DNA of 64,000 nt from a virus, in the IMG/VR virus record IMGVR_UViG_3300044614_001341, positions 1 to 64,000 of that record; one strand, written 5' to 3'. The notes under the pieces were generated by a model. That model ran no database searches and was not told where the DNA came from. It worked only from the letters and a program-made list of their open reading frames with translations. This document shows positions 1 to 63,697 of this stretch, piece by piece. Every line of letters begins with the position of its first letter. Positions within the stretch are counted from its first letter, which is position 1. A program made the translations under genes and the position numbers.

Positions 1-3000
1 TATTTGCTGTTCTTAAAGACCAATTTATAGTATCAGTAGAAGAACTTAAAACTCCAGAGTTTCCACCAGCAACATAAACACCACCATAAACCATAGCATT
101 AATAGTGGTAGTACCAAAACCAGAAGTTCTTAAAGTCCAGTTGATATTATCGGTAGATACTGAAATAAAACCACCATCACCAATTGCATTACTACACCCA
201 GCAACAATATAATCATTACTGGTTCCAATAGAGTTAATAGTATGAATTGCAGAGTTTGTTGTGCGAAGTATCCAATATAAGCTGTCTGTTGATGTAGAGA
301 AATAGGCACCGTTTCCAAAACCAGATAAGATGTTTTGAGTTGATGTTCCAGTGACTCCAGAAGCACCACCAAAAATATAAGTATTATTTCCAAATCCAAT
401 TGTATTAATTGCCGATGTCGTAGATGTTGTTCTTAAAATCCATACAATTCCATCAGTAGAAGTTGCTGTATTGGCACTATTAGTAGCACTTACACCACCA
501 GCAACATAAACACCGTTATTATAAACTAATGAGTTGATTGCGTTTGTGGTGAATGGTGTAGTTCTTACAGTCCAGTTACTTCCATCTGCGGATGTTGCTA
601 AACGACCAGCATCACCAGAAGCAACATAAACAGTTCCATAAGTTAATGCACGAACTGCAGAAGTACCAAATCCAGGTATTTTAGCATCCCAAGAGATTGA
701 GTCGGTAGATGTGGAAAGTCCAAAACCTAAAGTTGTTAGAGATGTTTGAGTAGCAGTGTTTAAGACTCCATTATTACCAGCAGCAACATAAGTATTATTT
801 GCATAGGTTAGTGCATTAATAGTATTACCAGTACCAGAAGTTCTTAAAGTCCAAGTGATTGCATCTGTTGAAGTATTTAATTTTCCACCCTCACCACCAG
901 CAACATAAGTATTGTTTGCATAAATGAACTCATAAAGAGTACTTAGAAAAAATCCAGAAGTTCTTAAAGTCCAAGTAATAGCATCTGTTGAAGTATTTAA
1001 TATTCCACCAGTACCACCAACAACATAAGTGCTGTTTGCAAAAGTAAGCGCAGCATATCCAGCAGTAGTACCAGAAGTTCTTAAAGTCCATACAATTGCA
1101 TTTGTTGAAGTGTTTAATACTCCATTATCACCACCGACAACATAAGTATCGTTTGCATAAATGAGAGTATAAAGATTTCCACTTGCAGCACCTGCAGTTC
1201 TTAAAGTCCAAGCAATTGCATCTGTTGAGGTATTTAATTTTCCACCATCACTACTAGCAACATAAAATGTTGAATAAGTAAGAGCACGAATAGTATTAGC
1301 ACCAAAACCAGAAGTTCTTAATTCCCAAGTGATTGCGTCTGTTGAGGTGTTTAATCTTCCATTACCACCAGCAACATAAGTATTGTTTGCAAAAGTAAGA
1401 GCATTAATATTAGTAGTACCAAAACCAGAAGTTCTTAAAGTCCAAGTGATTGCATTTGTTGAGGTGTTTAAGACTCCATTAAAACCACCAGCAACATAAG
1501 TATTATTTTCAAAAATAATATCAGAAAGATTGTTAGTAGTACCAGAAGTTCTTAAAGTCCATTGAACATTAGTGCTAATATTACCACCAGCAACATAAAG
1601 ACTATTCGCATATATTAAAGCATTAATCGTCGTATTACCAAAACCAGAAGTTCTAAACTCCCAAGAAAGTCCATCAGTAGAAGTAATAAGGTCTCTAACA
1701 AGACCATCATAGTCAGTAAATCCAGCAACGATACGATTTGATGTATCAACTGCAAAAGAGTTAATTGTTTCTATATTGGTATTTGTGGTTCTTAAAGCCC
1801 AAACAATTTCATCTGTTGAAACTGAAAAATAAGCACCGAGTCCTGTGGAGGTTAGTGTGGTGGATGGTGAGGTATTTAATATTCCACTAACACCACCAGC
1901 AACATAAGTATTGTTTGCAAAGGTAAGTGCATAAATGGCATTAGCAGCAAAACCAGAAGTTCTTAAAGTCCAAACAATTGCATTTGTTGAGATATTTAAG
2001 TTTCCACTAGCACCACCAGCAACATAAGTATTGTTTCCAAAGGTGAGTGCATTAATATCTATAGCACCAAAACCATAAGTTCTTAAAGTCCAATGAATTG
2101 CATCTGTTGAGGTATTTAATCTTCCACCTTGACCACCAGCAACATAAGTATTATTGGCAAATGTAAGAGTATTAATTAAATTTGCACCAAAACTAGCAGT
2201 TCTTATAGTCCAAGCAATCGCATCTGTTGAAGTACTTAATCTTCCAACTACACTGGAAGTACCTCCACCAGCAACATAAGTATTGACAGGCGTATCTCCA
2301 AAAGTAAGACAAGTAATAGTACTAGTGGCAACACCAGAAGTTCTTAAAGTCCAGGAAATTGCATTTGTTGAGGTATTTAAGACTCCACCAGCACCACAAG
2401 TAAGATAAGTATTGTTTGCATAAGTAAGAGCATAAGGAATTTGACCACCAAAACTAGCAGTTCTTATAGTCCAAGCAATCGCATCTGTTGAGGTTCTTAA
2501 GACTCCAGCACCACCAGCAGCAACATAAGTATTAGTAGGAGTATTTCCAAAAGTGAGTGCTAGAACAGTACCAGCACCAAAAGACAAAGTTCTTGCAGTC
2601 CAGATGATTGAATCTGTTGAGGTACTTAATCTTCCACTAGCACCACCAGCAACATAAGTATTGTTTGCAAAGGTGAGTGCATTAATATCACTAGTAGCAA
2701 AACCAGAAGTTCTTAAAGTCCACATCACAGTGGCACCTGTACCACCAGCAATATAATTTCCACTATAAGTTCCAAGAGCATTAATAGAACCTACAGTTCC
2801 TGATGTTCTTAAAGTCCATCTAACTGCATCTGTTGAAGAAACTAAAACACCAGAAGCACCACCCAAGACATAATCACTGATATACACCGAAGCATTCAAT
2901 GCACTTGTAGTACCAGAAGTTCTTAGAATCCAATAAATAGGTGTTACTGCAGTTCCACCAAGTAAATATACATTATCCTTAAATGCAAGTGCATTCATCT

Positions 3001-14911: not shown

Positions 14912-15490
14912 CTACTTACCGTATCTTTTATCAATAGGTTTGTTAGGGTCAAGTCCCTTTGCCTCTCTATATTTCCTCCATCTCTCTTTTGTTGCTTCAC
15001 TTCTTCTCTCTCTTTCTTCTTCACTAATATTTGGATTTTTAGAAGCATTCTTATTACCTTTACCTGCCTCACTCAACTTTTGTTTTGTTTCTTCACTCAA
15101 CTTTTTACCAACCATACGAGTATTACCTTCTAAACTCTTTGAGATTTTTGCCTTATGCTCCTCACTCAACTTCATACCAGTTCTAAACTGTCTCAACTTT
15201 TCTTTACTCTCTTCTGTATGCTTCAACTTACCTTTATGTGATTGACTGATTTTTTGTTTTGTTTCTTCTGTATGAACTCTTCCAGTTGGGTCCATCAGCA
15301 ACCTTACAATCTCTTCTTTACCAATAGTTCCTTCTAAACCTTTCCAAGCACAATAATCTTTGATATTACCATATTGCTCCCACAACTTTCTGTGTGCCTC
15401 TGCGTGTTCTTCCACAGTCAGTTCAATAAGATTTGATGAGTCGTCAGTTCCACCCATATGTCTTGGAACAATATGATGTTTATGTTTCAT
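14912..15490 (-). CDS. HNH homing endonuclease with NUMOD3 repeats
   Basis: HKHHIVPRHMGGTD..NLIELTVEEHAEAH; HTEETKQKIS repeats; start refined to MKHKHH behind a late promoter. Confidence 0.9.
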   Translation of the reverse strand: MKHKHHIVPRHMGGTDDSSNLIELTVEEHAEAHRKLWEQYGNIKDYCAWKGLEGTIGKEEIVRLLMDPTGRVHTEETKQKISQSHKGKLKHTEESKEKLRQFRTGMKLSEEHKAKISKSLEGNTRMVGKKLSEETKQKLSEAGKGNKNASKNPNISEEERERRSEATKERWRKYREAKGLDPNKPIDKRYGK

Positions 15491-15574
15491 TCTTACTGTT
15501 GCTGTCTCTACTACATTATTATTTATAAAAAAAGAGACCTTCACAGGTCTCCTCCGTATTATATCACATTATAA

Positions 15575-15985
15575 TCAACCAATAATACTCTCTCTCCACT
15601 CTTCACTCATATTCACCATAATTGCTTCTGCTGCTTCTGGTGTTTCGGCATATCCTTCATCAAGTAAATGTGAAAGAATGATGTCGTAAATATCTACTTG
15701 TTCTTTTTGAGTTCTTTTCATATTTCTTTCACTTTTAGTCATTTTTCCAGACATACTACCAAAATTTGTAGTACCTAACATTCCATATTTTTGATTACCG
15801 AAAAATGAGGGATTTTGTTTTGCTTTTCTTACTGTTGGTTTTTCCTGCCCCACTTTTTCAGGATTTCTTTTTGGCATTAATTTTTTTCTTCTTCCGTGAA
15901 CATCATATTCTTTATCATTAGTTCCTTCACCAATAACAACTTCCATATATGCTTCTTGAAGATTGCGAAGTTCTTGTGCGTCCAT
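15575..15985 (-). CDS. Hypothetical late protein with YDIILSHLLDEGYA C-terminal domain
   Basis: TATAAATA upstream; C-terminal domain shared with 43482..44828. Confidence 0.75.
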   Translation of the reverse strand: MDAQELRNLQEAYMEVVIGEGTNDKEYDVHGRRKKLMPKRNPEKVGQEKPTVRKAKQNPSFFGNQKYGMLGTTNFGSMSGKMTKSERNMKRTQKEQVDIYDIILSHLLDEGYAETPEAAEAIMVNMSEEWRESIIG

Positions 15986-16147: not shown

Positions 16148-16810
16148 TTATTGGTGTTTTTGTTTTCTATATTTCCAATTTTGATTTCCCTTTTTTGCTT
16201 CACTTAATTTTTTTCTAGTTTCTTCTGATGGTGTTTTGCCTTTATGTGCTTCACTCATTTTTATTTTGGTTTCATCGGATAATTTTTTACCTTTCATATT
16301 CTGATTACCTTTTTGTGCTTCGCCAACTTTTTGTTTAGTTTCATCCGAAAGTTTTCTACCAACATTCCAAGTATTTCCCATCATTTTCTGTCTTATTTTA
16401 TCTTTATGTTCCTCCGATAATTTCATTCCTTTTCTTTTTTCACTTATTTTTTGTTTTTGTTCTTCAGTCATTTCTTTACCATAGTTGGGATTTTTTTCAC
16501 CAACTCTCATTTCACTTAATTTTTTTCGTGTCTCTTCACTTACCAAAACACCAGAAGCACCTTCACCACCATCAGTTCTGTTGCGAAGAACACCTGTTCC
16601 TATATCCTTCCTCCCAAATACCACAATCATATACTTTTCGTGCTTGAATGCTTCTTCTTCAGTTAAGTTTTTCTTCAAAAATATTATTCTAGATTTATCT
16701 TTTGGTGGTCTTATATCACCATTTGTTTTATTATAAATTCTTTTTCCTTTTCCCTTTCCAATATAGTAAGGAGTTTTATCCTCTCGCAAATAAGCGTAAG
16801 TGTAATACAT
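16148..16810 (-). CDS. GIY-YIG-type homing endonuclease with NUMOD3 repeats
   Basis: YYTYAYLRED.TPYYIGKG..R; LRNRTDGGEG; SEETRKKLS repeats. Confidence 0.9.
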   Translation of the reverse strand: MYYTYAYLREDKTPYYIGKGKGKRIYNKTNGDIRPPKDKSRIIFLKKNLTEEEAFKHEKYMIVVFGRKDIGTGVLRNRTDGGEGASGVLVSEETRKKLSEMRVGEKNPNYGKEMTEEQKQKISEKRKGMKLSEEHKDKIRQKMMGNTWNVGRKLSDETKQKVGEAQKGNQNMKGKKLSDETKIKMSEAHKGKTPSEETRKKLSEAKKGNQNWKYRKQKHQ

Positions 16811-16857
16811 TTCTACTCTGTTATGGTTCGCAATAATATTTATAATACATTATACTA

Positions 16858-16910
16858 GAAAAGGTGCCCGAAGACACCTTTTCACCTGATAGATGCGAAC
16901 CACACAGGTA
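16858..16910 (-). ncRNA. Predicted ~55-nt late small RNA complementary to the HEG leader
   Basis: Own TATAAATA (16915-16922); hairpin ACCTG-loop-CAGGT; terminator GAAAAGGTG-TCTTCGGG-CACCTTTTC; no ORF. Confidence 0.6.
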
Positions 16911-16923
16911 TTAGTATTTATAT

Positions 16924-16950
16924 AAAAAAAGGAACCCCGAAGAGTTCCTT
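16924..16950 (-). terminator. Terminator after psbA
   Basis: AAGGAACTC-TTCG-GGGTTCCTT + T tract. Confidence 0.9.
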
Positions 16951-16963
16951 AACTTTATTGAAA

Positions 16964-18046
16964 TTATCCTACAGTCGGTGCTGTGAGAGCAACGGGAGTT
17001 GCTTCTGCAGCAGCAAGGTCAAGAGGGAAGTTATGAGCGTTGCGCTCGTGCATTACCTCCATCCCCAGTCCAGCACGGTTAAGAACATCAGCCCAGGTAT
17101 TAACTACACGGTTCTGACTATCAACGATACTTTGATTAAAGTTGAAGCCATTCAAATTGAAGGCCATCGTAGAAACACCAAGAGCAGTGAACCAGATGCC
17201 TACAACGGGCCAAGCGGCGAGGAAGAAGTGCAGCGAACGTGAGTTATTAAAGGAAGCATATTGGAAAATAAGGCGTCCAAAATAACCGTGAGCAGCTACA
17301 ATGTTATAAGTCTCTTCTTCTTGACCGAACTTGTAACCATAGTTCTGGGACTCATTCTCAGTGGTTTCACGAACCAGCGAGGAGGTCACCAGCGAACCGT
17401 GCATAGCACTAAACAGAGAACCACCGAACACACCAGCAACTCCAAGCATGTGGAAGGGGTGCATAAGGATGTTGTGCTCTGCCTGGAACACAAGCATGTA
17501 GTTGAAGGTTCCGCTGATACCCAGAGGCATTGCATCACTAAAACTACCTTGACCGAAAGGATAGACCAGGAACACTGCACTCGCAGCAGCAACAGGTGCG
17601 CTATAAGCAACCATAATCCAAGGGCGCATACCTAGACGGTAAGAGAGTTCCCATTCACGACCCATATAAGCATAAATGCCAATAAGGAAGTGGAAGACAA
17701 CAAGTTGGAAAGGTCCACCATTGTAGAGCCACTCATCTAGGGAAGCAGCTTCCCAGATAGGATAGAAGTGAAGTCCGATAGCGTTAGAAGAAGGAATCAC
17801 AGCACCAGAGATGATGTTGTTTCCGTAGAGGAGTGAACCAGCAACAGGTTCACGGATACCATCAATGTCCACAGGGGGAGCACCGATGAATGCGATGATG
17901 AAACAAGTAGCAGCAGCAAGCAGCGTTGGAATCATCAGGACACCGAACCACCCGACATAAAGACGGTTATCGGTTGAAGTAACCCACTGGCAGAATTGTT
18001 CCCAGAGGTTTTCGCCAGAACGGCGTGAAGCGATTGAAGCAGTCAT
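16964..18046 (-). CDS. psbA: Photosystem II D1 protein (Glu130, high-light type), intronless
   Basis: [35 protein letters not shown]. Confidence 0.99.
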
Positions 18047-18049
18047 TTG

Positions 18050-18160
18050 TTTAAAAGAGTAGTAAGACCATCAGGGAAATGGTGGTGATACTATTCCCCA
18101 GTCACCCTCAGACTGGGTATGAGAGACGTGATTTATACACCCATAGGTCTCGGTTAACGA
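18050..18160 (-). ncRNA. Structured psbA 5' leader, PhotoRC-II-like motif
   Basis: GAGAC..GTCTC, CCCAGTC-TGAGGGT-GACTGGG and ACCAT-TTCCCTG-ATGGT stems; family assignment from recollection. Confidence 0.65.
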
Positions 18161-18214
18161 GTGTTTAACAATGTTAAGAACTATGAGGAATCCTTAACAT
18201 TTGTTTACCTATTT

Positions 18215-31349: not shown

Positions 31350-31417
31350 ACAATTATTTTAATATCAAATCATTATACCAAAAAAGGAGAGTTTATGCAA
31401 CTCTCCCCTAGGTCTTT

Positions 31418-31818
31418 CAGGCTCGCCACCAATTCTTTGACTGGAAATTGGAAACCAGGCGGGAGAGAGTCCCATCCGCACCAACGTCATTTGAGAGATG
31501 CCGTAAACTCATATAGGGTCATATTTGACTCCACCACTCAGTTTTATGAAACTAAGAAAAGTTGGGTTAACTTTGATATCTCGGTAATACCAAAGAATGC
31601 ACATAAGAATAATACATCCCAAAGTTTAAGTTTAATGGCAAAAGGTACTGTTAGAAATCCTCCAATAACTTTGACCAGCAAACCATATTTAAAATCTCCC
31701 CATAACATAGTTTGATAACCAATTATAAGAAGAAGGTTCCCAAGATACCTTAGGACACTTGTTTTAGACATAAGGGGGGTTTGCTCCCGACCAGTGCTGT
31801 TAACGTCCATCCGTGACG
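31418..31818 (-). ncRNA. manA/wcaG-like structured RNA, split by an ORF
   Basis: 5' part GTCACGGATGGAC..TGGTCGGGAGCAAACCCCC (31772-31818). 3' part has repeated pseudoknot + TGGTG modules ending TGGCGAGCC (31418-31560). Lies upstream of gmd/fcl; family from recollection. Confidence 0.65.
31544..31771 (-). CDS. 75-aa multi-TM membrane protein
   Basis: MSKTSVLRYLGNLLLIIGY...; three hydrophobic segments. Confidence 0.7.
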   Translation of the reverse strand: MSKTSVLRYLGNLLLIIGYQTMLWGDFKYGLLVKVIGGFLTVPFAIKLKLWDVLFLCAFFGITEISKLTQLFLVS

Positions 31819-41293: not shown

Positions 41294-41965
41294 TTAACCT
41301 TTTTTCCAAGATTCACCTTCTGCTTTTCTTCTACGAGCAAGTCCTGCTTCTACATTGGAACCAGGATTTCTGTAGAGATATAAAGCATCGGGAACTAAGT
41401 CCCATTCTTTATTCTTCAGTCTCTTAGTGATAGTATTAAAATCACCAGAACCATAAAAACCAGCACCGAGATTATAAGCAAAAGAAAGTAGGGCACCTCT
41501 TTTACCATCAGACATTTCATTCCAGTGTGGAATTTTACGAAGTGCAGGAAGAAATTCTCTCTTGCATTGTTCAATCAAAAGTTCATCTGCTTCTTGTTGG
41601 GTAAGTGTATCACCCATATGGAATGCAGATCCATCTTTCTTACGAGTTGAACCCCAACCAATTGTGATTGGAAGTCCACCAGTGAGAGGGTCTGGATATG
41701 CTTTGAGGTGACATCCTTCAAACTCTTTGATCAATTTAAGTCCCATCATAGGCATATCGTCACCACCAACTACAGGAGCGGCAGCAGATGGTGCTGATGC
41801 TGGTGCCGCATTACCCTTTTTTCCTCTGTAGATCTCCGCCCAATCTACATTATCTTCTAGATACTTGACTGGTAGATTATCTTCTAACCATTGAACTGCT
41901 TTCACATGATTAGGGTTCTTCTCGTCATAGAACTTGAAGAAGTTATGTAAATCGATTCTTGCCAT
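41294..41965 (-). CDS. Endolysin (GH24 lysozyme)
   Basis: LIKEFEGCHLKAYPD..TIGWG, ALLSFAYNLG, GLARRRKAE. Confidence 0.93.
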   Translation of the reverse strand: MARIDLHNFFKFYDEKNPNHVKAVQWLEDNLPVKYLEDNVDWAEIYRGKKGNAAPASAPSAAAPVVGGDDMPMMGLKLIKEFEGCHLKAYPDPLTGGLPITIGWGSTRKKDGSAFHMGDTLTQQEADELLIEQCKREFLPALRKIPHWNEMSDGKRGALLSFAYNLGAGFYGSGDFNTITKRLKNKEWDLVPDALYLYRNPGSNVEAGLARRRKAEGESWKKG

Positions 41966-42063
41966 TGTCGTCTCCAAAGTATTTGTTGAAAAGTTTGGAA
42001 GCTTCTAAATGCTTTCCGTGATTTGTAAGATCTTTAATTCTTTGCAAGATCTTTCTCTTGAAA

Positions 42064-42735
42064 TTAATCGAAGATTCTGCCCCATCCATCATTGCCCCCT
42101 GGACACCAACGGTGCTTAAGAACTGCTTTGGTATAAATGGTTTTCTTACCATTCGTTACGGGACCAGTATAATTGTCATTGAGAGAACCATAAGGATCAT
42201 TAATATAATATCCCTTACCATCTGGAGTCTTACCAATGACCACGCACATGTGCCCACCAGTAGGAGAAGTTAGAGAACCACGGTGGAGAATACCAATAAC
42301 AACAGGTTTTCCTCTATCAAGACTCTTATCAATATCAACAAAACTTAAATTATAACTAAAGTGTGATTTAATACCATAACCTTGTAGAACTTTAGTCTGC
42401 ACTGCATGGTCTGTAGTATCACCAATCGCAAATACTTTCTTAACATACTCATCATCACCTTTAATGCTTCCTGGTTTGAGGAAAGCAAGACACATTGCAC
42501 ACGATGAAGAGTTGCAAGTTCTTTGTGCATCTCTATAGTTGTCTACTTGGTTAAAGTATGGAACATCAAGAACTGCTGGAGTTGGTGGTTTTGTTCTAAA
42601 AATTCCAATCCATTCAGATTCTGAGTCATCCATAAATTGAGCAGGAAGGTTATCCTCTAACCATTGAACTGCTGCTACATGATTCACATTACCATCATCA
42701 TAATACTTAAAAAAGTTATGAAGATCTAATGTCAT
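42064..42735 (-). CDS. C39-like peptidase (putative cell-wall endopeptidase)
   Basis: LDVPYFNQ..CNSSSCAM..GHMCVVIG..INDPYG. Confidence 0.85.
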   Translation of the reverse strand: MTLDLHNFFKYYDDGNVNHVAAVQWLEDNLPAQFMDDSESEWIGIFRTKPPTPAVLDVPYFNQVDNYRDAQRTCNSSSCAMCLAFLKPGSIKGDDEYVKKVFAIGDTTDHAVQTKVLQGYGIKSHFSYNLSFVDIDKSLDRGKPVVIGILHRGSLTSPTGGHMCVVIGKTPDGKGYYINDPYGSLNDNYTGPVTNGKKTIYTKAVLKHRWCPGGNDGWGRIFD

Positions 42736-61196: not shown

Positions 61197-63697
61197 CAGT
61201 TAAAAAATGACTCTAAGGTTGTTATATGTTCTGTTTTCCATCCAATTGCATCAAGAATGGACTTAAGTGGTTCAAGAAAACTTTTTTCAAATTGTAGTTC
61301 ATAGTCAATATATTTGTCAAGTCCAAGTTCCAAAGGAAAATCTTGAATGAAAGAGACAATATTTTCTTGAATAATATTTGGTTTTTTGAGGTAGATAAAT
61401 TTAATCTTTTCCCCATTACCAATAAGTGAATATTTATTGGTGAGTTTTTTCTCTTTAATATAATGATTAAAGAGAAGTGCTCCACGAATATGAATTGGTG
61501 TTCCCTTCATATAAATGTCAGAATGGGAATGATATTTACGAACATCTGAGGCAGTTCTTGGAAAAGCAATCTGCTCTGGTGGCAGTTTTTTGAAGTCAGA
61601 ACGACACTTATCAATAAACTTAATCACCTGTTCTTCAGTTCCACTCATCATTAGTTTCAGACCATCTTTAATCATCTGGCGACAAGGAGCAGGTGTGGAG
61701 GATTTAACTGCCTCAATACCCATCATCTTCAGTTTAGGTTCTTCATAACGAACACCCTCACTATCCCAAACATTGAGAATATACCGCTTTTTGGCAGTCC
61801 AGATTCCACGGTCAGCAATATTCTCCCGCTTCATCTGCATCTTTTGGTCATATGCATTCACATAATCCGCCAGTTCTTGGTAGCAACTTTCAATATATTT
61901 TTCAAGTTCCACCTTAGCGACCTTATCAAGGAACGAAACAACGCTTTCAGTAGTTTTTTCTCTTCCCTTGTATACAGTTTCAACCAAAGGACCCATATTG
62001 AGATAAATGGAATCAGTATCAGAAGCAATAACATAATCTACCTCTTTAGTTTTTAGAAGTTTATTGAGATAAGTATTCATTTTTTCTTCTATCCAACGAA
62101 TAGCAACTTGCCCAGAAAGAGTAATTGCCTCAGCATTCGCTAATTTAAAGTAACGAAAATACTGATTACCAATAGCACCATAGGCAGAGTTAAGTTGAAT
62201 CTTTCTTGCCATTTGGATATTGTTACATCTAGCAATCTCCTTCTCAAGTTCCTTTGTCTTTTTCTTTTCATACTCCTGTTTAGCAGCAAGCATCTTCTTT
62301 TTGTAAATGGTGCGATCTTCATAGATCTTTTCCATCAACTCTGGAAGAAATCCCCGAACATCTTTACGATACATTGCCCCATTAGCACATACCGCATAGT
62401 CCTTATACATTTCAAATGTGAGTTGTTTGTTAAGGATCTTATCGACACTAACAGATGGGTGCCTTTCTTCTACCAAAGTTTCTGGTGAAATATTATAACC
62501 CATAATCAGGTGAGGATACAGTGAGTTAAGGTCAAAGTTCACAACCCAATCATACACCCCAGGAATCGGTTCTTTTACATAAGCACCAGCATACTTAGAA
62601 TCTTTATCAGACCTCACGTTTGGAGGAATCACAATATTCTTCTTTTTCAGATAGTTGTAGATAATTGTATCCCACATACGAACCTGAGAGAAAACATCAG
62701 CATAGTTTGCCTTAGCATCATACGCCATCGTCAAAGCAAGTTCAATGAGTTTCATCTTGTCTTCCAAACGGTCAACAAGTTCTACGTCAATGATGTTGTA
62801 TTCTACAAACTTCTGCCAACCTTTGGTGTAGAAATCTTTGAACGTATCAAACTCACTGTGATCTAACTTTTTCTGACCAAGTTCTACATTTGCAATGTGG
62901 TCAAGACGATAAGATTCCTGTGCCTTATAAGTAAACTTCTTATAAAGATTCAGATAATCAAGTTGACTTACTCCACCAATATCATAGGAAATATGCTTAC
63001 GCCCAGAGATGAATGTTTCACTTTCAGTTACCAATCCCCATGGAGACATACGCTTCATGAGTTTTTCTCCCAGAACACGATCTATACGACGAACCAAGTA
63101 TGGGATATCATATAATTCACTATTCCAACCAGTAATGACTTCAGGTGTATTCTCCTCAATCATCCACCAATTAATAAAGTCGTTCAACAAATCATGCTCA
63201 TTTGTAAAAGAACGATATTTTACATTACTCTGTTGATTATTGAACTTACCAAGACCCCAAGTAAGAATCTGTTTTGTATTATAATCTTGAAGTGTAATGA
63301 GCAACACTTCTTCAGCGGCACTTTCCACATCAGGGAATCCATTCTCGGATGCAACCTCAATATCAATTGTTGTTACTTTGATTTTATTAATATCAAACTT
63401 AACTTCATCTTCAGGATAAGTTTCGGAAATATATTGATAGATGTATCGGTCATTTCCATGAATTGAAAATCCTTGAACATCAGTATATTTCTTAATAAAT
63501 TCTCTACATTCTCTTACTGTTCCAGGTTGAATTGGTTCAACACATTCACCATTCAGAGTTTTATATTCAGTATTCTTTTTTGAAGGAACAAAAAGAGTCG
63601 GGTAAAACTTCTCACGGGTCATGAAATGTTTACCATTTTCATAACCACGGACCAAGAAGTGGTCCCCGACCATCTGGACATTTGTATAAAATCGCAT
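61196..63697 (-). CDS. Family B DNA polymerase (T4 gp43)
   Basis: DIEV exo motif, FDLNSLYP, KIQLNSAYG, DTDS. Confidence 0.98.
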   Translation of the reverse strand: MRFYTNVQMVGDHFLVRGYENGKHFMTREKFYPTLFVPSKKNTEYKTLNGECVEPIQPGTVRECREFIKKYTDVQGFSIHGNDRYIYQYISETYPEDEVKFDINKIKVTTIDIEVASENGFPDVESAAEEVLLITLQDYNTKQILTWGLGKFNNQQSNVKYRSFTNEHDLLNDFINWWMIEENTPEVITGWNSELYDIPYLVRRIDRVLGEKLMKRMSPWGLVTESETFISGRKHISYDIGGVSQLDYLNLYKKFTYKAQESYRLDHIANVELGQKKLDHSEFDTFKDFYTKGWQKFVEYNIIDVELVDRLEDKMKLIELALTMAYDAKANYADVFSQVRMWDTIIYNYLKKKNIVIPPNVRSDKDSKYAGAYVKEPIPGVYDWVVNFDLNSLYPHLIMGYNISPETLVEERHPSVSVDKILNKQLTFEMYKDYAVCANGAMYRKDVRGFLPELMEKIYEDRTIYKKKMLAAKQEYEKKKTKELEKEIARCNNIQMARKIQLNSAYGAIGNQYFRYFKLANAEAITLSGQVAIRWIEEKMNTYLNKLLKTKEVDYVIASDTDSIYLNMGPLVETVYKGREKTTESVVSFLDKVAKVELEKYIESCYQELADYVNAYDQKMQMKRENIADRGIWTAKKRYILNVWDSEGVRYEEPKLKMMGIEAVKSSTPAPCRQMIKDGLKLMMSGTEEQVIKFIDKCRSDFKKLPPEQIAFPRTASDVRKYHSHSDIYMKGTPIHIRGALLFNHYIKEKKLTNKYSLIGNGEKIKFIYLKKPNIIQENIVSFIQDFPLELGLDKYIDYELQFEKSFLEPLKSILDAIGWKTEHITTLESFFN

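Follow-up and report, generated by a model that had tools for sequence, protein, structure and literature searches.

Homing endonucleases are selfish elements that cut DNA, and phages have to hold their dose down. The junction between psbA and an endonuclease gene in a T4-like cyanomyovirus raises the question of whether such a limit could be set by the DNA directly in front of the nuclease gene and, if so, whether the RNA involved would act in cis, in trans or in both ways. The source genome is an IMG/VR record of 114.6 kb, of which the window (the whole stretch of DNA that was analysed, 64,000 nucleotides) is a fragment; the minus strand carries nearly all genes of the window. A preliminary description of the locus had proposed a dedicated late small RNA, complementary to the leader of the adjacent endonuclease gene, that limits the nuclease dose or serves as an RNA cofactor.

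Layout of the psbA-endonuclease junction

The 3′ end of psbA and its terminator are approximately 80% identical to their counterpart in S-PM2. From this terminator the order on the minus strand is P1, hairpin, UUCG terminator, P2, complementary leader and ATG, with each element at the place where the preliminary description had put it. The features are as follows, in transcription order.

18083-18176, minus strand: PhotoRC-II RNA, 5′ of psbA (Rfam match, 83 bits)
16964-18046, minus strand: psbA, with its stop codon at 16964-16966
16929-16950, minus strand: psbA intrinsic terminator from the terminator scan (9-bp stem, UUCG loop, U run), adjoining the 5′ side of the cassette
16915-16922, minus strand: P1, a consensus T4-type late promoter box TATAAATA, with the predicted +1 at A16909, the sixth nucleotide past the box
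16857-16909, minus strand: putative late RNA of ~53 nt that would start at the P1 +1 and end in the U tract of the terminator, as predicted from these two elements
16884-16909, minus strand: 5′ hairpin with a 5-bp stem and a 16-nt loop, beginning exactly at the predicted P1 +1
16905-16909 and 16884-16888, minus strand: stem strands of this hairpin (ACCUG and CAGGU, respectively; loop at 16889-16904), as read from the sequence
16894-16909, minus strand: antisense arm to the leader, comprising the 5′ stem strand and the 5′ portion of the loop (cognate duplex −23.3 kcal/mol)
16857-16880, minus strand: intrinsic terminator between the arms, with an 8-bp stem (16861-16880), a UUCG loop and a UUUUCU tail
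16837-16844, minus strand: P2, a consensus late promoter box TATAAATA inside the long-range loop, with the predicted +1 at G16831
16815-16832, minus strand: leader or target, the complement of the arm; it opens the P2 mRNA, runs as far as position −5 and contains the purine-rich GAG tract
16808-16810, minus strand: ATG of the endonuclease gene, as read from the sequence
16148-16810, minus strand: NUMOD3-repeat endonuclease gene (ORF of 220 aa), directly 3′ of the cassette
14912-15544, minus strand: HNH/NUMOD3 endonuclease gene, the second endonuclease in the psbA-psbD interval

The T4 late box spans positions −13 to −6 (PMC2988020), and the +1 was set accordingly at the sixth nucleotide past each box. 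The arm and leader pair over 14 bp with one bulge and one G:U, exactly as the preliminary description had it; cofolding extended the helix to 15 pairs, reaching position −5. A contiguous RNA of 161 nt spanning both arms folded at −55.5 kcal/mol, compared with −28.2 ± 3.4 kcal/mol for shuffled sequences (z = −8), and its minimum free energy structure was the long-range arm-leader helix enclosing the terminator hairpin. Folded by itself, the predicted 53-nt RNA formed the 5′ hairpin and the terminator hairpin (−24.0 kcal/mol). The terminator, whose stem is lengthened by an A run on its 5′ side, is unique within the window. Across the whole 114.6-kb genome, only two pairs of late promoter boxes lie 40-110 nt apart, and both are cassettes (duplexes of −23.3 and −24.3 kcal/mol).

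The protein encoded downstream contains five NUMOD3 repeats (Pfam NUMOD3, 1.6e-26) and falls in PHROG homing-endonuclease families, and its tblastn matches are annotated as Seg-like/GIY-YIG. Pfam detected no GIY-YIG domain in the 220-aa sequence, and a single-sequence PDB search with the nuclease domain gave no significant match. A profile search of this domain returned a marginal match to a solved GIY-YIG protein (E = 0.011), and the residues Y3-x-Y5, Y15-Y16-x-G18, R24, E58 and N77 were invariant in 18 homologues. These data suggest that the gene encodes a free-standing homing endonuclease with a Seg-like, GIY-YIG-type N-terminal domain followed by NUMOD3 repeats.

After this gene come two small ORFs, the HNH/NUMOD3 endonuclease gene and then psbD. 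The HNH + NUMOD3 gene (window 14912-15575, minus strand) has only a terminator and an ATAAATA box on its 5′ side, and the antisense arm is absent; the cassette is thus not used by every endonuclease of the source phage. Elsewhere in the window, a wcaG RNA gave a strong Rfam match (99 bits, 31415-31512, minus strand), and ten tRNA genes were found, eight at 32.3-37.3 kb and two near 56.4-57.1 kb.

Distribution of the cassette and covariation of its arms

A BLAST search with one whole cassette against 50,697 phage records returned S-SRM01, a Synechococcus phage, as the sole match. The matches of a distant DNA search to this genome, at several places, reached from the hairpin loop across the N-terminus of the endonuclease. 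S-SRM01 carries the same layout at four unrelated positions, each with a different arm and a matching leader, and the terminator core occurs exactly four times in its genome, always within an endonuclease cassette. A fifth endonuclease copy of this phage lies behind a plain cis hairpin that lacks the terminator. Phage B23, reached only through a search with the endonuclease protein, shows the same layout with yet another terminator sequence. These two isolates both infect Synechococcus. The cassette is absent at the endonuclease homologues of ACG-2014f and S-N03. A second cassette was found in the source genome outside the window (contig ~75,630-75,727, minus strand; locus L013:1570-1680), where it precedes another Seg-like endonuclease; it has its own upstream terminator and a different seed that pairs over 14 bp with one G.U.

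IMG/VR was scanned twice with the terminator core, the second time with a pattern that contained no promoter, and at least 120 stretches were listed. From these, 99 complete sites with a terminator and a late promoter were extracted. Among the sites listed, 90 had an arm-leader duplex of −14 kcal/mol or better, and 89 of these reached −19 kcal/mol or better. The remainder comprised six ordinary late genes without arms, two remnants and one mismatched recombinant. In all, at least 90 copies with intact pairing were found, including the second copy of the source genome, the four of S-SRM01 and the B23 variant, with the others on IMG/VR contigs; S-SRM01 carries four copies, the source genome two, and IMG/VR contigs up to three. 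Invariance of the terminator core in this set was partly imposed by the search pattern. Compensating changes in the terminator stem were found in the second cassette of the source genome and in the B23 variant.

Eighty-five distinct cassettes were aligned with MAFFT, and arm-leader covariation was counted at the 10 helix positions that were in register in most rows. Over these ten positions and six terminator pairs, 98.2% of cells paired, and the three segments of the arm-leader helix were 92-99% paired. When the partners were slid by 1-3 columns, pairing dropped to 36-51%. Up to four Watson-Crick pair types occurred at a single position (for example AU 33, GC 19, UA 19 and CG 1). Cells with changes on both sides numbered 176, against 38.5 ± 4.6 after shuffling, although in a set made up mostly of metagenomic viral contigs, many of them related, such cell counts overstate the independent events. 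A safer measure is the count of distinct seeds (33-40); at least 33 different arm/leader sequences were present across the cassettes. In an alignment-free comparison over these seeds (33-40 depending on seed length), cognate duplexes had energies of −23.3 ± 1.7 kcal/mol and non-cognate duplexes −11.1 ± 4.2 kcal/mol, and the cognate leader was the best partner in 30 of the 40 seed classes. Covarying RNA/leader pairs upstream of homologous endonucleases had been named in the preliminary description as the check on its proposal; the outcome was strongly positive, with covariation across 85 distinct copies.

The predicted duplexes contained 74 G.U or U.G wobbles and no A.C 1x1 mismatches. This indicates that selection on the helix acts in RNA that has the sense of the endonuclease gene, and not in DNA or in an antisense transcript. 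Across the cassettes, the helix is 14-17 bp long. In most of them the duplex begins within ~2 nt of the predicted P2 start, so placing the predicted +1 on the first nucleotides of the 3′ arm, and stops 4-5 nt before the ATG; it covers only a weak purine-rich tract, leaving the AUG itself free in most copies. In all seven multi-copy genomes or contigs, with ~17 within-genome pairs, the seeds were mutually non-matching; by a rough estimate based on how frequent the seed types are, this would occur by chance about half the time, so that the observation is uninformative as to cis or trans action.

The genes behind the intact cassettes, among the matches listed, are all endonuclease-like and encode proteins of 150-325 aa, which bears out the earlier proposal that the cassette travels with homing endonuclease genes. 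They comprise 21 Seg-like YxYAYLR proteins, the class found in the window, 15 HNH-NUMOD3 and two short HNH proteins, two further tyrosine-rich classes with 23 and 21 copies, several with NUMOD3 repeats, and one protein each of a Pfam-detectable GIY-YIG and an EndoVII-like type. When seeds were compared over nine nucleotides, 15 of 33 were shared between endonuclease classes, and 9-17 seeds were found with each major class. This indicates that arm/leader units are exchanged between nuclease ORFs, the junction lying close to the conserved sequence in front of the ATG, and fits a generic expression-control module for any free-standing endonuclease. The EndoVII-like protein lies behind an S-SRM01 cassette (L008:1603-2136; PHROG endonuclease VII, 7e-10) and is reminiscent of F-CphI, a cyanophage homing endonuclease for which the EndoVII catalytic type has been reported.

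The P1 unit and its predicted RNA

The P1 box was absent from both search patterns. Its TAAAT core was nevertheless invariant in 85 of 85 aligned cassettes, in the form N[A/C]TAAATA, and the C variant of the late box is known in Aeh1 (PMC2988020). The box was present in 87 of 88 complete cassettes at a fixed distance of 5-6 nt from the hairpin, over many different insertion sites. The P2 box was invariant in all cassettes, including the 45+ recovered with the pattern that lacked P2. The coding strand of the source genome has 22 occurrences of TATAAATA and 13 of CTAAATA, the opposite strand none of either, and 45 of 56 N[A/C]TAAATA boxes are followed by an ORF within 80 nt, typically after 10-35 nt. 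This strand bias and placement indicate that the motif behaves as the late promoter of the source phage. The antisense arm thus lies, as had been claimed, between a consensus late promoter box of its own and what appears to be an intrinsic terminator.

The predicted P1 +1 coincided with the first paired nucleotide of the 5′ hairpin in 80 of 88 cassettes, and the first nucleotide was paired in 86% of cassettes, compared with 19% of shuffles. The hairpin stem covaries (closing pair AU 31, GC 23, GU 11), with local pairing of 81%, an underestimate since ~17 rows were out of register. Only ~46% of the leader-pairing arm nucleotides were unpaired in the predicted fold of the small RNA, and in the one copy inspected, the cassette of the window, the target segment was predicted to be unpaired in the P2 transcript alone. 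Cofolding of the predicted 53-nt RNA with the P2 transcript gave a ΔΔG of −13.0 ± 2.5 kcal/mol for cognate and −2.4 kcal/mol for non-cognate combinations.

The regularities of promoter, hairpin and terminator would be expected of a short RNA with a protective 5′ hairpin that ends at the terminator, and seem hard to explain otherwise; a purely cis model has no need of them. As in known trans-acting small RNAs, a short non-coding unit is enclosed by its own promoter and terminator and has compensatory complementarity to a target, here at the level of sequence. A put-like antiterminator hairpin after P1 was also considered, and was dropped since it left the complementarity to the leader unexplained.

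Transcripts from upstream would also reach the cassette. The upstream ORF ends at a stop codon within the P1 box, and no terminator comes before it, in 53 of 80 cassettes. This indicates that upstream transcripts enter the cassette and that the read-through RNA holds both arms. The arms are split by the conserved terminator, and only read-through RNA would hold the two. In the cassette of the window and in the second copy of the source genome, a separate terminator already precedes P1. The homologous endonucleases of S-SRM01 (L004) and Sf-CH5 have a plain cis hairpin without a terminator or a consensus upstream box; upstream of L004 there is only a one-mismatch box, TGTAAATA, ~16 nt before the arm. 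Where the requirements of the arm and of the local stem conflict, in rows with CUAU arms, leader pairing is retained and the hairpin stem is lost. The TAA of the P1 box serves as the stop codon of the upstream gene in two thirds of the IMG/VR cassettes, and TAAATAA provides stops in two frames; the mobile unit thus begins exactly where the preceding ORF ends.

Modes of action and relation to known systems

Our preferred reading is a portable negative translational control of homing endonucleases through arm-leader pairing, in cis and probably also in trans; we judge the chances of its being right or wrong to be evenly balanced. The working part would be an RNA-RNA helix of ~14-17 bp between the upstream arm and the first ~17 nt of the endonuclease mRNA, a stretch that reaches from +1 to about −5 and takes in the weak, purine-rich tract for ribosome binding. 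Once formed, this helix would block 30S binding, and the nuclease would not be made. The arm would constitute a small transcription unit of its own, with the late promoter P1, a 5′-terminal hairpin and an intrinsic terminator, while translatable mRNA would start at P2, the second late promoter, between the arms. Transcription from the upstream gene or from P1 would mostly end at the terminator. RNA that reads through would carry the arm and be silenced in cis, following classical T4 logic, whereas the terminated ~53-nt RNA would accumulate and pair in trans with P2 transcripts, capping nuclease output in the late period. The functions of promoter, terminator and repressor are assigned here from sequence features. 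Silencing of read-through RNA in cis is very likely. That trans pairing by the P1-terminator RNA adds to this in vivo we put at just short of an even chance. The more general proposal, that T4-like cyanophages carry at least 33 orthogonal pairs of ~53-nt small RNA and leader, each throttling its co-travelling endonuclease in trans as well as in cis, is tentative, and we would sooner doubt it slightly than accept it.

Several features run counter to the preferred reading. The U tract of the terminator is short (UUUUCUU). The arm RNA and its target mRNA would be made simultaneously from promoters of a single class, and what a trans effect would gain is then not obvious. Fewer than half (~46%) of the arm nucleotides that pair with the leader are free in the predicted small-RNA fold. 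The plain cis hairpins of the L004 and Sf-CH5 homologues show that cis action alone suffices elsewhere. Moreover, a gap of 4-5 nt is usually left between the helix and the AUG, and the tract that resembles a Shine-Dalgarno sequence is weak.

One rival reading is a cis-only ‘double lock’, in which a T4 repression hairpin has a terminator placed in its loop, so that most upstream transcription ends there, read-through is silenced and only P2 transcripts are translated. P1 would then be weak, incidental (supplying the upstream stop codon) or a source of read-through, and the short RNA would have no regulatory role. This reading is possible but somewhat doubtful. It draws on a mechanism established for endonucleases and late genes of the T4 family (PMC2988022, PMC3014915), on the long-range helix as the minimum free energy structure of the contiguous RNA, on the terminator-less cis versions in homologues, on the 53 of 80 cassettes that let upstream transcripts in, and on the precedence of leader pairing over the local stem in the CUAU arms. 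It leaves unexplained the invariant late-promoter box, which 87 of 88 complete cassettes place 5-6 nt before the hairpin, the coincidence of the predicted +1 with the first paired base, and the covarying 3′ strand of the local hairpin; in both source-genome cassettes, moreover, a terminator already stands upstream of P1. Helices at the 5′ end are known stabilisers of mRNA. Pairing that begins at or beside the predicted mRNA +1 might act positively in trans, the P1 RNA shielding the 5′ end of the P2 mRNA from RNase E/J decay and raising nuclease output. We consider this improbable, since the duplex reaches −5 and covers the sole purine-rich tract before the AUG, the identical helix in cis is a classical repressor, and the documented controls of phage homing endonucleases are all negative (PMC2988022).

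Two further readings do without RNA regulation of the leader. The inverted repeat might be a recombination or cruciform site in DNA that mobilises the cassettes, with complementarity kept by templated (quasi-palindrome) repair. The terminator-late-promoter core is indeed a repeated, PeSL-like composite that also occurs at armless ordinary late genes, and the arm/leader units do reassort with different endonuclease ORFs. However, all 74 of 74 non-Watson-Crick helix pairs are G.U or U.G on the sense strand, an asymmetry unexpected for a cruciform or for templated repair, and the position of the helix is constant relative to both predicted transcription starts and to the AUG, which makes a DNA-level element very improbable. 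The other reading, the alternative offered in the preliminary description, takes the small RNA for a cofactor or guide of the adjacent nuclease, and physical adjacency and co-mobility are what speak for it. The same seed, however, precedes Seg-like, two other tyrosine-rich, HNH-NUMOD3, short HNH and EndoVII-like proteins, and such reassortment of one arm/leader pair among unrelated nuclease families (15 of 33 seeds, as above) rules out a nuclease-specific RNA cofactor. The seed also matches its own leader, not a plausible DNA target, and we regard the whole reading as extremely improbable.

The preferred reading places the cassette close to the hairpins of T4 and its relatives. I-TevI, I-TevII, I-TevIII, segB, Aeh1 mobE and the genes e, soc and 49 are under negative control by a ribosome-binding-site hairpin with an internal late promoter (PMC2988022, PMC3014915), and at T4 mobE extra terminators limit endonuclease transcripts (PMC2790892). 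As in those hairpins, the 5′ arm of the cassette lies upstream of a TATAAATA late promoter and pairs with the translation initiation region, late transcripts would start between the arms and so lack the 5′ arm, and the genes concerned are homing endonucleases, which would be controlled negatively. In contrast to the T4 hairpins, the cassette has an intrinsic terminator in the loop and a second late promoter just before the 5′ arm, which would allow the arm to be transcribed separately as an RNA of ~53 nt. Its 5′ arm is held in a conserved hairpin from the predicted +1, its helix covers +1 to about −5 and not the AUG, and it is a multi-copy, reassorting unit with at least 33 seeds. Because the uninterrupted transcript is replaced by two transcription units, the cassette is a variant, and not a member, of the T4 cis-hairpin mechanism.

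PeSL elements likewise combine a conserved terminator stem-loop with a promoter, are repeated beside variable or mobile genes and are shuffled as modules (PMC2839356, PMC4122927). The cassette resembles them as a repeated, conserved terminator-promoter motif beside such genes. PeSLs, however, have early sigma70-type promoters, whereas the promoter of the cassette is of the late TATAAATA type, and they have neither flanking complementary arms nor a proposed function in RNA-RNA pairing. A composite of terminator and late promoter without arms or P1 was also seen before ordinary conserved late genes (L088, L110, L127, L131, L143, L145, L090, L115, L117 and L152), and looks like the late-promoter counterpart of PeSL cassettes.

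In IstR-1/tisB and OrzO/zorO, a harmful gene has beside it the gene of a short RNA with a separate promoter and terminator, and this RNA blocks the ribosome through a match of 12-20 nt to the 5′ UTR. The predicted short RNA unit of the cassette, with its own promoter and terminator beside a harmful gene, would be of similar design. Unlike in those systems, the RNA gene stands in tandem on the same strand, the pairing would also work in cis, the target is a DNA endonuclease of a lytic phage, and RNA and target share the late promoter type. Type I toxin-antitoxin membership was rejected, as such systems target a small hydrophobic membrane toxin, whereas the target here is a nuclease gene.

Two phage RNAs invite comparison. 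CfrI of S-PM2 is a cis-antisense RNA of ~225 nt that overlaps psbA and F-CphI, with a proposed regulatory link to the endonuclease (PMC2984593). The cassette likewise lies at a psbA/homing-endonuclease junction of a cyanomyovirus, but is on the sense strand and shares no sequence with S-PM2 beyond the psbA terminator. Homology to CfrI was rejected: similarity to S-PM2 stops at the terminator, CfrI is on the opposite strand, and the structure of the cassette is selected on the sense strand. StxS, a small RNA of a lambdoid prophage, arises from a late promoter with early termination, follows an antitermination logic and acts on host targets (PMC7547250). A short RNA from a phage late promoter closely followed by a terminator would be common to both, although the cassette RNA, unlike StxS, is linked to a complementary downstream leader.

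The preliminary description had not recognised the arrangement as a described one, and the searches agree. Rfam contained no family for the cassette at the gathering score, and at E ≤ 10 gave chance-level matches only (≤22 bits). The S-SRM01 genome paper makes no mention of it, and full-text searches on cyanophage endonuclease regulation, PeSL cassettes and phage small RNAs found no description of this arrangement. According to a review of 2010, T4 had no functionally characterised regulatory RNA that acts in trans (PMC3014915).

The cassette can be seen as the T4 cis-hairpin idea repackaged into a self-contained unit of promoter, structured antisense arm, terminator, promoter and matching leader, which recombines onto at least five kinds of nuclease gene and exists as dozens of mutually non-matching pairs. 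If the proposed control is real, selfish nucleases of unrelated families would share a ‘leash’ through recombination. Should the short RNA be made and act in trans, it would represent a new class of phage small RNA and the first dedicated trans-acting regulatory small RNAs of the T4 superfamily, a host-parasite truce encoded in ~110 nt. The pairs would then also form a natural library of orthogonal riboregulators, for which the cultured phages S-SRM01 and B23 could serve as test beds. Were it to act in cis only, the cassette would still be a new, widespread and mobile variant of endonuclease control in freshwater cyanomyoviruses.

Irregular copies were also recorded. Two orphan units (L106:2790-2960 and L114:1650-1810) have P1, the arm hairpin and the terminator intact while the leader and endonuclease gene are gone, and are probably deletion remnants. 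Recombinant cassettes with mismatched arm and leader were found at L072:300-420 (−6.9 kcal/mol) and in L017 (−14.1 kcal/mol), against approximately −23 kcal/mol for cognate pairs; the latter (locus position ~43-130, minus strand) also lacks P1. Finally, Seg-like NUMOD3 endonucleases carry the label ‘translation initiation factor 2’ in GenBank in MW015081 (S-SRM01, 62515-63273), MN695335 (B23, 41542-42165) and PV340852 (Sf-CH5, 156271-156693). This looks like a misannotation, presumably arising from the basic NUMOD3 repeats.
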